From a virus (taxonomy: Duplodnaviria; Heunggongvirae; Uroviricota; Caudoviricetes): a stretch of DNA of 64,000 bases. The notes beneath the pieces are model-generated. The model made no database searches. It saw nothing but the letters and a program-made list of their open reading frames with translations, and was not told where the DNA came from. Every line of letters starts with the position of its first letter. Positions within the stretch are counted from its first letter, which is position 1. Made by a program: the position numbers and the translations under genes. Shown piece after piece: positions 31,938 through 33,773 of this stretch. The DNA is taken from the IMG/VR virus record IMGVR_UViG_2880395615_000008; one strand, written 5' to 3'.

Positions 31938-32333
31938 ATGGCGAAACCTTTTACACACGAACAGCGTGAAGAACTGAAGGCCCGAATTATCGGGCTGGTA
32001 CGCAAAAATGAACGCATGACGATATCACAACTGGAGAGAGCGACGGGAGCAGGCTGGCATTCAGTCAGACGTTGCCTTGTGGATGTACTGGCTTGCGGCG
32101 ATTTATACATGCCCGGTAAATACGGTGTTTTTACATCAGAACAGGTGTATCGCGTATGGCGTAAGGCAGCGGAGAAAACAACCGACCAGACATTGATTCG
32201 AAAGTTACCAGACGGAGAAATACGCCGCTACGACAGACAACAGAACATAATCTGTGGCGAGTGCCGGAAGAGTGAAGTTATGCTGCGTGTACTGGCGTTC
32301 TATCAGGGCAATTTTCAGGAGGCGGTATTGTGA
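31938..32333 (+). CDS. Hypothetical protein (131 aa)
   Basis: ORF starting MAKPFTHEQREELKARIIGL...; CxxC pair near C-terminus. Confidence 0.5.
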   Translation: MAKPFTHEQREELKARIIGLVRKNERMTISQLERATGAGWHSVRRCLVDVLACGDLYMPGKYGVFTSEQVYRVWRKAAEKTTDQTLIRKLPDGEIRRYDRQQNIICGECRKSEVMLRVLAFYQGNFQEAVL

Positions 32334-32746
32334 GTGAATTAGCTATCAGGCTTCAATTGTCGCTGGCATTCACATCAAAGGAGAAGAGCATGGAAATAAA
32401 ACCAGAAGATGAGTTAAGCAATATCGTTTTATTTCCGGTAAAAGAGGATGACCCACGTAATCAGGTTAATTTTCTTTATGAGCCATCGGAAAGAGCATAT
32501 TGTCATCACGCCTCTGTTCGGGTTGACGAAAAAGAGCGTCAGGTCCGCTGTAAAATCTGCGGTGCAGTTGTGGAGCCATTTGACTGGATGCTCTCTGTGG
32601 CGAAAAGAGAAACCAGACTGGCAGATGATGTAAGGATCTTGCGCCAGGAGGAACGGGAAAGGCGGAGAAATATAGAAAAGCTAATTCAGATTGAGCGTAA
32701 CGTGAAAGCGCGGATACGCAGGGTGACAAAATCCAGAACTGAATAA
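32330..32746 (+). CDS. Hypothetical protein (about 138 aa), basic C-terminus
   Basis: ORF overlapping previous stop; CHH...C..C cysteine/histidine cluster. Confidence 0.45.
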   Translation: MSELAIRLQLSLAFTSKEKSMEIKPEDELSNIVLFPVKEDDPRNQVNFLYEPSERAYCHHASVRVDEKERQVRCKICGAVVEPFDWMLSVAKRETRLADDVRILRQEERERRRNIEKLIQIERNVKARIRRVTKSRTE

Positions 32747-32794
32747 TTAAATTTAGCTCTGTTAAAAATTTAATCCTTAACCGGAGGTATATCA

Positions 32795-33007
32795 ATGTCA
32801 AACGCACAGAAAGTTATTAACGCTGAAAAATATAACGAGTGGGTGAAAAAGTTCTCAGAGCAGATTTTTAAAATTACTGGCGACGAGAATGCGGCAAAAA
32901 ATGAATTAGAGCCGTGGACACCTGAAGGTGTCGACCCAAATTATTGCTGGTGGGATGTTGATCCAGTTGATGCTGCAAATGAAGCTATGAGTTATCACAA
33001 CGATTAA
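32795..33007 (+). CDS. Hypothetical protein (70 aa)
   Basis: ORF with GGAGG RBS. Confidence 0.45.
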   Translation: MSNAQKVINAEKYNEWVKKFSEQIFKITGDENAAKNELEPWTPEGVDPNYCWWDVDPVDAANEAMSYHND

Positions 33008-33042
33008 TGTCAGGAGGCCGCCCGAAAGGGCGGTAATGAAAA

Positions 33043-33414
33043 GTGACTGAATTAACCAAAGAGAAATTAATCGAAGAAGCCAAATTAAAAATAGCGATTG
33101 CGAAATGCTACCCCAATTCAGGGATGGCACGGGTAGAGGGCGAGTTATTCAAAATTGCACTGGCATCGCTGGAAGCAGAACCGATAGCGTGGGAATGCGG
33201 TGAAAACATAATCCTGTTTAACCCTGACACAGTTGAAGCATACGCAAAACGTGCGGAAATATCACCTAAACCACTATTCTCCGCGCCGCCAGCGCTGGTA
33301 GTGCCTGATAAGTTGCCGCGTGAATACAGAAACGGTTGGCCTCTTGCGTATAGTGATTATGCTGAAGGCTGGAACGACTGCCGCGAAGCCATGCTTCAGG
33401 GAGATAAATCATGA
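33043..33414 (+). CDS. Hypothetical protein (123 aa)
   Basis: ORF; no recognisable motif. Confidence 0.45.
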   Translation: MTELTKEKLIEEAKLKIAIAKCYPNSGMARVEGELFKIALASLEAEPIAWECGENIILFNPDTVEAYAKRAEISPKPLFSAPPALVVPDKLPREYRNGWPLAYSDYAEGWNDCREAMLQGDKS

Positions 33415-33773
33415 TTAATCGTATCAAGCTGGAGCACATCCTCGAATATGCCAGGCAGCAGAGGCATATTGGTCAGCATTGTAAAATTCCACCAGGAGAT
33501 ATGGTTGAAATCATGGAGATTGCCATGCGCAAGGCTGGCAATTCTCCGGTAACTCCGGATGGTTGGATAAGCTGTAGTGAGCGAATGCCGAATACCAAAA
33601 CAGCCGTTCTTGTTGCCGTGGAGTTTGACAGGAAAGGTGACTGGCGAATGAAATGGGCTACTTACATCCCGGGGCATCCTGACGCTAATGATGGGTGGAT
33701 AATTCCTGGTGCGTCGTGGAAACCGTCACACTGGATGCCGCTACCAGAACCGCCGCAGGAGGTGCGCCAATGA
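33411..33773 (+). CDS. DUF551-type phage protein (120 aa)
   Basis: ...DGWISCSERMP... and tryptophan-rich C-terminus typical of DUF551 as I recall it. Confidence 0.5.
   Translation: MINRIKLEHILEYARQQRHIGQHCKIPPGDMVEIMEIAMRKAGNSPVTPDGWISCSERMPNTKTAVLVAVEFDRKGDWRMKWATYIPGHPDANDGWIIPGASWKPSHWMPLPEPPQEVRQ

Follow-up and report, generated by a model that had tools for sequence, protein, structure and literature searches.

Gene content and layout of the block

The window, by which we mean the whole 64,000-nucleotide stretch of IMG/VR record IMGVR_UViG_2880395615_000008, carries a lambdoid prophage of Escherichia coli O157:H7 integrated at ompW. Between its replication genes and a hok/sok locus lie five co-directional open reading frames (ORFs) on the plus strand, at the coordinates given in an earlier note on this DNA, and the gene context bears out the note's view that this is a nin-like accessory region of lambdoid type. 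The features discussed below are as follows (window coordinates).

29408-30376, O-like helix-turn-helix gene, upstream replication gene
30383-31123, DnaC-like ATPase gene, upstream replication gene
31153-31922, plus strand, DUF1627 gene of the K-12 Rac YdaW type (Pfam DUF1627, 7.3e-88), adjoining the block upstream
31938-32333, plus strand, ORF1, DUF977 (PF06163), 131 aa from ATG (136 aa if started at TTG 31923)
32390-32746, plus strand, ORF2, PHROG 1621, 118 aa from ATG (138 aa if started at GTG 32330)
32795-33007, plus strand, ORF3, acidic, 70 aa, PHROG 4659
33043-33414, plus strand, ORF4, acidic, 123 aa, GTG start, PHROG 5117, 660 and 60
33411-33773, plus strand, ORF5, 120 aa, DUF551 (Pfam PF04448), start overlapping the ORF4 stop (ATGA)
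33564-33589, plus strand, 5' bracket of the DUF551 cassette, encoding WISCSERMP, conserved at the DNA level, one copy in the window
33729-33754, plus strand, 3' bracket of the DUF551 cassette, encoding HWMPLPEPP, conserved at the DNA level, one copy in the window
34070-34394, plus strand, hok/sok type I toxin-antitoxin locus, bounding the block downstream
34070-34244, sok RNA (Rfam RF01794, 111.7 bits)
34182-34394, hok ORF, annotated hokD (Pfam HOK_GEF, 2.9e-23)

Positions 31900-33800 of the window are 100% identical to annotated E. coli O157:H7 genomes, where the same five CDS are annotated. The genes themselves are catalogued as families (DUF977, PHROG 1621, PHROG 4659, PHROG 5117/660/60 and DUF551), albeit uncharacterised ones. 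The ORFs had been described as partly overlapping, which holds for the 4-nt ATGA of ORF4 and ORF5, and for ORF1 and ORF2 if the GTG start of ORF2 is used; the remaining intergenic gaps measure 56, 48 and 35 nt. Promoter-like sites (8 observed, 5.7±2.9 expected) and terminator-like sites (4 observed, 4.0±1.7 expected) were at chance level, and a scan of the plus strand inside the block recovered no terminator-like site. Given the lack of above-chance internal signals, the five genes are most simply transcribed by read-through from the replication genes.

Distribution of the five genes

The earlier note had proposed the block as a candidate for one undescribed multi-gene system. Such a proposal draws on the common strand, the tight packing, the absence of internal terminators, the translational coupling of ORF4 to ORF5, and the fact that all five genes are of unknown function. 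Conserved co-occurrence and order across unrelated elements, by which we judged a multi-gene system, were however not found in either genomes or viral contigs. The whole block was present in 81 of 5426 complete E. coli genomes, whereas at least 80% of the respective gene was recovered from 468 (ORF1), 1678 (ORF2), 602 (ORF3), 132 (ORF4) and 65 (ORF5) of these genomes, counts that understate diverged ORF1, ORF4 and ORF5 alleles because they were made with megablast. The genomes listed with the full arrangement were mostly O157:H7 and nearly identical in sequence, and for that reason the arrangement looks clonal.

IMG/VR loci anchored on each gene in turn showed dozens of differing gene combinations. 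In viral-contig sets that are biased and partly redundant because they were drawn from the 80 closest relatives of each anchor, DUF977 (ORF1) lay directly 3' of DUF1627 in 47 of the 55 DUF1627-anchored loci, which also held ORF2 (28), ORF3 (6), ORF4 (9) and ORF5 (11), while ORF2 was present in 38 of 52 ORF3-anchored loci. DUF1627 followed by ORF1 was the sole stable pair in these contigs. In addition, relatives of ORF2 occupy another slot, between NinG and Q, in the company of none of the other four genes.

The co-occurrence data thus largely refute the one-system proposal, which we now regard as extremely unlikely. We consider it likely that the block consists of independently acquired, individually exchangeable accessory genes of the lambdoid early-right operon (the nin-like segment from the replication genes to Q), and not of the parts of a multi-component system. 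The five-gene arrangement is essentially confined to the O157:H7 lineage and was assembled from separately mobile genes. With this result a five-gene-system candidate can be struck off, which is its chief value; current understanding of DUF977/DUF1627, the ORF2 family and the DUF551 brackets stays as it was unless experiment shows a function. For the single proteins, we infer possible mechanisms below from homology, position or fold.

The DUF1627 gene and ORF1

In the window the DUF1627 gene is frameshifted at an A7 run (31265-31271) and reads as ORFs of 59 and 222 aa; strain 611 has A8 at this site and encodes a single 256-aa DUF1627 protein. By this A7/A8 difference the prophage copy studied here is partly decaying. 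A phage annotation ('putative YdaW family protein') had raised the suspicion that K-12 YdaW is a DUF977 homologue, but YdaW, which is 47% identical to DUF1627, proved to be a truncated protein of that family and bears no resemblance to ORF1.

The last ORF (DUF551-like) had been thought the only assignable one. ORF1 is assignable as well, matching Pfam DUF977 over profile positions 1-134 of 134 (241.1 bits, cutoff 22.1). ORF1 also falls by sequence homology into the lambda Ren family, PHROG 142 'Ren-like exclusion protein' (2e-43). Similarity to lambda Ren itself was detected by BLASTP (29% identity, E 2e-6) and by hhalign with the ORF1 family profile (probability 96.3%, E 1.9e-9, 90 columns). 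Against the PDB, the top matches of the ORF1 profile were Z-alpha-type winged helices, at a borderline E of 1.4e-3. Taken together, these comparisons indicate that ORF1, a basic protein (pI 9.5) with its winged helix at the N-terminus, is a distant homologue of lambda Ren. Two ORFs of the block had been credited with Cys/His clusters suggestive of zinc binding; in ORF1 the CxxC pair C106/C109 alone is kept, and two thirds of relatives have L in place of C46 and S in place of C53. ORF1 also has a conserved C-terminal motif, 'YDR..NIIC.EC..SE.M.RVLAFY'.

Lambda Ren and ORF1 share the winged helix and the C-terminal motif EC(R/K)xSxxMxRVLAxY, and each gene comes shortly after the replication module as part of that operon, ren standing immediately after gene P. 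ORF1 differs in being 35 aa longer by an insertion, in matching Pfam DUF977, which does not match lambda Ren, and in being preceded by a DUF1627 partner gene, which lambda lacks. From the lambda genetics of Toothman and Herskowitz in 1980, Ren is said to shield infecting or induced phage from Rex-type exclusion. Literature on Ren and RexAB yielded nothing beyond general background, and we know of no biochemical mechanism for Ren. By analogy, ORF1 would be a nucleic-acid-binding winged-helix protein that travels with the replication module and probably shares the role of Ren in guarding infecting or induced phage from Rex-type exclusion. A by-product that may help phage biologists is a Ren-like label for DUF977, which is stably paired with DUF1627.

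ORF2

ORF2 matched PHROG 1621 (8e-54), whose profile begins at the ATG of the 118-aa form, the start also chosen by PGAP. The protein consists of a disordered N-terminus, a CxH...CxxC ribbon (C38, H40, C54, C57) and a basic alpha-helix (residues 63-117). Here, and in no other of the five proteins, the suggested Cys/His cluster stands up, as four conserved metal ligands are arranged in two knuckles; among 49 diverse relatives at 21-50% identity, C38, C54 and C57 were invariant and H40 was kept in at least 90%, being invariant in close relatives. The AlphaFold2 model (mean pLDDT 73) reached 77-96 over residues 41-118 and placed a beta-hairpin at 43-54. In clusters at 50% identity, 1366 matched the ORF2 profile.

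No Pfam family scored above threshold for ORF2, a family-alignment profile search of the PDB gave nothing meaningful, and a fold search with the model returned no significant match in the PDB or BFVD (best E 0.48 and 0.12). Residues 37-73 aligned to the TFIIB-type zinc ribbon (PF08271) at 18.2-18.6 bits, below the gathering cutoff of 29, and the best structural match was likewise the N-terminal ribbon of TFIIB (27 columns, rmsd 1.8 Å). However, the first knuckle of ORF2 is CxH instead of CxxC and further TFIIB features are absent, so the resemblance appears generic to zinc ribbons.

Distant relatives of ORF2 are found between a junction resolvase gene (NinG, RusA or YbcO) and Q in prophages of Erwinia, Yersinia, Phytobacter, Leclercia, Symbiopectobacterium, Pantoea, Kluyvera and Entomohabitans. 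In 9 of the 13 loci, a set found with a closer ORF2 alignment, the start codon of the relative overlaps the stop codon of the gene before it. In lambda, rap/ninG is closely followed by ninH (PMC7166090), and NinH and the distant ORF2 relatives thus fill the same NinG-to-Q slot. We also considered ORF2 as a NinH homologue and rejected it: hhalign gave a probability of 0.6%, and all that the two have in common is the genomic slot, in distant relatives. Lambda NinH is a Fis-like DNA-bending helix-turn-helix protein, in contrast to the zinc ribbon and long helix of ORF2, and in the window ORF2 precedes hok and is well removed from RusA and Q, unlike lambda ninH. The wider likeness is to lambda ninR (ninB-ninI), which occupies the same operon segment from the replication genes to Q and consists of small, packed, dispensable and mosaic genes.

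For the long, conserved basic helix, coiled-coil oligomerisation and nucleic-acid binding are the probable roles. Because the distant relatives are coupled to a resolvase gene and stand ahead of Q, we propose that ORF2 may be a small protein that associates with DNA and modulates late replication, recombination or the early-to-late switch; it would then correspond to the Fis-like NinH by position, without homology. ORF2 represents a large unnamed phage family defined by a zinc ribbon and helix, conserved ligands and a recurrent resolvase-to-Q position.

ORF3

ORF3 (PHROG 4659, 3.7e-50) is strongly acidic, with a pI of 4.4 and a net charge of -8. In a search of 5.8 billion proteins, each of the 120 hits that carried a source name traced to Escherichia, Shigella or Enterobacteriaceae and had at least 70% identity, and the ORF3 lineage appears limited to Escherichia and Shigella. 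It would be a young, acidic, lineage-specific protein that probably binds a host or phage protein. Free assortment of genes in the block is compatible with pairwise functional links, for example between ORF2 and ORF3.

ORF4, ORF5 and the DUF551 domain

ORF4 (pI 4.9) carries the motifs IALASLEAEPIAWECGENIILFNPDTVEAYAKRAEISPKPL and GWNDCREAMLQ. It had no Pfam hit at E ≤ 0.1, and it was not placed in Ead_Ea22 (PF13935); its modules recur only in proteins with a DUF551 fusion or an Ead/Ea22-like annotation. In ORF5, a private two-helix N-terminal module (residues 1-41) precedes a DUF551 domain at residues 51-116 (78.7 bits, cutoff 22). This DUF551 allele recurs behind at least 10 N-terminal modules that are unrelated to one another. 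A family-alignment profile search of the PDB with DUF551 gave nothing meaningful. The AlphaFold2 model of ORF5 was of low confidence (pLDDT 57) and was left out of the fold search; the model is poor because the DUF551 domains of its homologues are nearly identical, giving an alignment without covariation.

ORF4-like and DUF551 segments were found in one polypeptide in 36 distinct proteins from IMG/VR loci (for example of 221, 215 and 148 aa). ORF4, as the N-terminal half, and ORF5 therefore appear, on sequence comparison, to be a divided form of the modular Ead/Ea22-like–DUF551 proteins, which other phages encode as fusions, a group that includes Ea22 variants of lambda and Stx phages and YfdS of CPS-53. 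The likeness lies in the genuine DUF551 domain of ORF5, in the occurrence of ORF4 modules fused to DUF551 elsewhere, and in mosaic, portable-domain behaviour, known from Ea22 variants, one of which has DUF551 (PMC10834534). The differences are the split into two coupled ORFs and the location, Ea22 being encoded in the exo-xis region and ORF4/ORF5 in the nin-like region. YfdS has been linked to H2O2 tolerance (PMC10834534), and yfdS or yfdT is required alongside yfdQR for suppressing replication over-initiation (PMC4776307). Like Ea22 and YfdS, ORF4 and ORF5 might modulate host physiology or the lysis-lysogeny decision, acting as a translationally coupled pair.

The occurrence of ORF4 and ORF5 as a single polypeptide in other phages could also indicate that they are one broken gene and that this is junk DNA decaying within a defective prophage, its small ORFs being non-functional. 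The frameshifted DUF1627 neighbour and the GTG start of ORF4, in a weak ribosome-binding context, fit this explanation. It appears very unlikely to us, since none of the five reading frames is broken and all are conserved in hundreds of genomes, since ORF5 brings a conserved N-terminal module and a start codon of its own and is coupled through ATGA, with no frameshift scar, and since the ligands and helix of ORF2 are kept down to 21-34% identity in more than 1000 clusters.

Proposed module exchange and possible counter-defence roles

The 5' DUF551 bracket occurred in 222 copies and the 3' bracket in 218 copies at three or fewer mismatches in IMG/VR loci, and the 5' bracket showed almost no synonymous change across unrelated cores. 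Between the two brackets, each of 26 nt, lie 62 distinct cores 115-166 nt long, in 10 families that show no relation to one another as DNA. Brackets identical at the DNA level may let homologous recombination swap these cores together with the upstream N-terminal modules, and the modules of ORF4 and ORF5 would be exchanged by recombination at such short conserved junctions.

The earlier note pointed to anti-restriction or host-takeover functions, and for individual genes such a role is possible. Searches of NCBIfam, PADLOC and the PDB with the five ORF sequences gave nothing meaningful, and PADLOC-DB models run against the five ORFs and their neighbours returned chance-level scores only (E ≥ 0.0066), assigning none to a defence family. 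Some or all of ORF2 to ORF5 could nonetheless be singly acting counter-defence (anti-restriction or anti-exclusion) or host-takeover proteins, with the rapid exchange of genes and the hypervariable DUF551 cores reflecting an arms race with host or prophage defences. The genes are early and small, ORF3 and ORF4 are acidic, the accessory region is highly variable, and conserved DUF551 brackets flank unrelated cores. The relative of ORF1, Ren, counteracts Rex exclusion according to the PHROG 142 label, and in a screen (bioRxiv 10.1101/2020.06.22.160242) ydaW, a K-12 homologue of the adjoining DUF1627 gene, came out as blocking the retron-Sen2 toxin RcaT. However, none of the proteins has a PADLOC match or a relative of known function or solved structure, the published phenotypes of DUF551 and Ea22 proteins concern lysogeny, oxidative stress and replication initiation instead of defence (PMC10834534, PMC4776307), and ordinary lambdoid mosaicism would predict the variability just as well. 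On balance we hold this explanation to be unlikely.

A broader proposal, which we think quite improbable, is that the DUF551 locus is a cassette-exchange hotspot in which ORF4/ORF5, and perhaps ORF3, are hypervariable determinants of counter-defence or host modulation, and that the ORF2 family is, separately, a new class of phage zinc-ribbon/coiled-coil DNA-associated proteins in the role of NinH. If so, core swapping would vary a surface by which a host or defence target is engaged. As a pattern in DNA, conserved DUF551 brackets around unrelated cores clearly illustrate how modules are exchanged at defined junctions.

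Genomic setting and gene order

Positions 31900-33800 of the window are a 100% match to an E. coli O157:H7 lambdoid prophage (e.g., strain 611), whose insertion site adjoins a truncated ompW and which is flanked by type III effector genes. The annotation of strain 611 (L002:1-12000) places the truncated ompW beside the prophage integrase, marking the attachment site. From the same annotation, the type III effectors nleH1-2, nleF, nleG and espM1 fall at ~11900-24000 of the window, with remnants of IS66, IS256, IS630 and IS3 scattered among them. The five ORFs claimed in the earlier note are genuine and share one direction; RefSeq annotates all of them, as DUF977, three hypothetical proteins and DUF551.

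Gene order around the five-ORF block
upstream of the O-like gene: repressor/Cro region, then YdaT-like gene
29408-30376: O-like helix-turn-helix gene
30383-31123: DnaC-like ATPase gene
31153-31922 (+): DUF1627 gene
31938-32333 (+): ORF1, DUF977
32390-32746 (+): ORF2, hypothetical protein
32795-33007 (+): ORF3, hypothetical protein
33043-33414 (+): ORF4, hypothetical protein
33411-33773 (+): ORF5, DUF551
33838-33993: small ORF, 51 aa from TTG (PGAP: 34 aa, 33889-33993)
34070-34394: sok/hok
downstream of sok/hok: DUF968, RusA and antiterminator Q (Q at 36619-37440)

Promoter-like and terminator-like signals within the block did not exceed the shuffled-sequence level, so that in the simplest reading the block would be transcribed by read-through from the early-right operon. 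An Rfam search returned sok as its sole match. The small ORF between ORF5 and sok encodes a hydrophobic, membrane-like stretch (LAVIAVVGVYCLVVFLM), has GGAGG just 5' of its ATG and is without a family match.

Co-occurrence of the five genes

The proposal that this nin-like region holds an undescribed system was not supported by a co-occurrence analysis of E. coli genomes and IMG/VR loci, in which no stable five-gene set was found: single-gene prevalences differed, gene combinations varied and the full set was rare. Pieces of the block were present in 3554 of the 5426 complete E. coli genomes, compared by megablast, which under-counts diverged alleles. The IMG/VR sets comprised up to 80 loci per anchor gene, partly redundant and drawn from its nearest relatives, with the other genes scored by tblastn; combinations among them were many and included DUF1627-ORF1-ORF5-hok, ORF1-ORF2-hok-DUF968-RusA, ORF4-ORF5 alone and ORF5 alone.

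Occurrence in complete E. coli genomes (80% or more of each gene, megablast level); in DUF1627-anchored IMG/VR loci
ORF1: 468/5426; 47/55, directly adjacent
ORF2: 1678/5426; 28/55
ORF3: 602/5426; 6/55
ORF4: 132/5426; 9/55
ORF5: 65/5426; 11/55
whole block: 81/5426 genomes

As ORF1 adjoined DUF1627 in most DUF1627-anchored loci and the other genes were found in fewer, DUF1627-ORF1 is the only stable unit, and its DUF1627 half lies outside the region singled out in the earlier note. A PADLOC-DB search of ORF1-5 and their neighbors allowed no defense or anti-defense assignment for the block. As a mosaic accessory region the block is unexceptional, if well resolved, and its genes come from catalogued families of unknown function.

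ORF1 and the upstream DUF1627 gene

ORF1 matched Pfam DUF977 (241 bits) and PHROG 142, 'Ren-like exclusion protein' (2e-43). Lambda Ren, which did not score against Pfam DUF977, aligned directly with ORF1 at 29% identity (E 2e-6), and hhalign of a profile built from ten diverse relatives of ORF1 against Ren gave a probability of 96.3% (E 1.9e-9) over an alignment spanning the winged helix and a C-terminal EC(R/K)xSxxMxRVLAxY motif. Against the PDB, the ORF1 profile matched Z-alpha-type winged helices best, with a borderline E of 1.4e-3; many helix-turn-helix regulators came next. The description that suits ORF1 best is that of a Ren-like winged-helix protein belonging to the replication module. 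Lambda Ren is known from classical lambda genetics to confer resistance to Rex exclusion, and ORF1 may have such a function. A four-ligand zinc site in ORF1 is unsupported, since the CxxC pair C106/C109 alone is conserved among its cysteines; lambda Ren has the second Cys only.

The weak match of the DUF1627 protein itself to PHROG 142 (E 5e-4) suggests related winged helices in DUF1627 and DUF977. In the window this gene is frameshifted: an A7 run at 31265-31271, A8 in strain 611, splits the 256-aa protein into ORFs of 59 and 222 aa, which could reflect a real pseudogene, a homopolymer sequencing error or slippage-prone phase variation. YdaW of the K-12 Rac locus (L398:4753-5313) was considered as a DUF977 protein and rejected; it belongs to DUF1627, in truncated form, and shares 47% identity with the product of 31254-31922. 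In a genome-wide screen, ydaW reportedly blocked the retron-Sen2 toxin RcaT (bioRxiv 10.1101/2020.06.22.160242).

Modularity of ORF4, ORF5 and DUF551

ORF4 and ORF5 both matched PHROG 60, at adjacent positions of its 461-position profile. Among IMG/VR loci, 36 distinct proteins carried ORF4-like and DUF551 segments in one chain, typically as a variable N-terminus, IALASLEAEPIAWECGENIILFNPDTVEAYAKRAEISPKPL, an optional GWNDCREAMLQ, a linker and DUF551; in the window the two are separate ORFs with an ATGA overlap, and ORF5 possesses its own two-helix N-terminal module (its predicted structure, of low confidence, was set aside). The exact DUF551 allele of ORF5 is joined in other E. coli proteins to at least 10 unrelated N-terminal modules, including Ead/Ea22-like and dATP/dGTP pyrophosphohydrolase modules, always at the junction (A/L)GN(S/Y)PV(T/I)PDGW.

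Within DUF551, conservation is confined to the edges SPVTPDGWISCSERMP and THWMPLPEPPQEV, and cores of different types cannot be aligned. At the DNA level, too, the edges are conserved, in 26-mers at 33564-33589 and 33729-33754 with 222 and 218 copies, respectively, in IMG/VR loci (at most 3 mismatches), which enclose 62 distinct cores of 115-166 nt in 10 families whose DNA is unrelated. This pattern is consistent with modules being swapped by recombination at short conserved junctions, as is familiar from lambdoid mosaicism, and DUF551 is a clear-cut case. At their conserved 3' end (33729-33765, …CCGCCGCAGGAGGTG, encoding PPQEV) DUF551 genes also hold a strong Shine-Dalgarno-like GGAGGTG, and DNA conservation there may partly serve translation of the next gene in other phages; in the window the next ORF begins more than 100 nt away.

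In published work on relatives, Ea22 is linked to a pro-lysogenic effect and its variants, one with DUF551, are described as mosaic; the DUF551 protein YfdS is linked to H2O2 tolerance (PMC10834534). Replication over-initiation is suppressed by yfdS or yfdT together with yfdQR (PMC4776307).

ORF2 and its relatives

Both PGAP and the PHROG profile place the ORF2 start at ATG 32390, preceded by a GGAG motif. Close relatives were restricted to Enterobacterales, and an exhaustive profile search recovered 1366 clusters at 50% identity (E <= 0.001). No Pfam family covers these proteins, which belong to PHROGs 1621, 4865 and 8538, each of unknown function. In 49 relatives (21-50% identity) the ligands C38, C54 and C57 were invariant and H40 nearly so, and the C-terminal helix kept the signature E(R/K)N.KAR(I/L)(R/K). 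In the AlphaFold2 model the N-terminus is disordered, strands 43-46 and 51-54 make up a small ribbon and residues 63-117 form one helix, with pLDDT 77-96 from residue 41 on. Foldseek found nothing significant in BFVD or the PDB, where the best match was to the TFIIB ribbon, over 27 residues (E 0.48). We infer that ORF2 is a small protein that associates with nucleic acid, probably as an oligomer.

Thirteen more distant loci were from Erwinia, Yersinia, Phytobacter, Leclercia, Pantoea, Symbiopectobacterium, Kluyvera, Photorhabdus and Entomohabitans. The gene upstream was NinG in 6/13, RusA in 1/13 and YbcO in 1/13, the ORF2 relative's start overlapped the upstream stop in 9/13, and antiterminator Q was directly downstream in 8 of the 10 loci scanned for it. 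In these non-Escherichia Enterobacterales prophages (L405-L419, e.g., L406:3366-4387) the relative is almost always coupled in translation to a gene for a Holliday-junction resolvase (NinG, RusA or YbcO), with Q next. In lambda, the slot downstream of NinG holds NinH, a Fis-like DNA bender (PMC7166090); the distant relatives occupy this slot, although ORF2 is not homologous to NinH. Annotated phages such as Parlo, Tyrion and PSTCR8lys have an ORF2 relative in a similar tightly coupled early array without a constant partner. Two possible readings leave some novelty in the block: the architecture of the DUF551 cassette may have been shaped by selection for diversity where it meets a host or defense target, and the ORF2 family may be an unrecognized class of phage DNA-associated proteins.

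ORF3 and the ORF3-ORF4 spacer

ORF3 (70 residues, acidic, pI 4.4, net charge -8) had 120 hits in 5.8 billion proteins, all at least 70% identical and, where an organism was named, from Escherichia, Shigella or Enterobacteriaceae. In the spacer that follows it (33008-33042) lies a stable GC-rich hairpin, GGCCGCCC-GAAA-GGGCGG, which has no T-run. ORF4 has a GTG start; its relatives begin MKMTE… at an ATG, and in the window that ATG, upstream at 33036, lies in a different frame.
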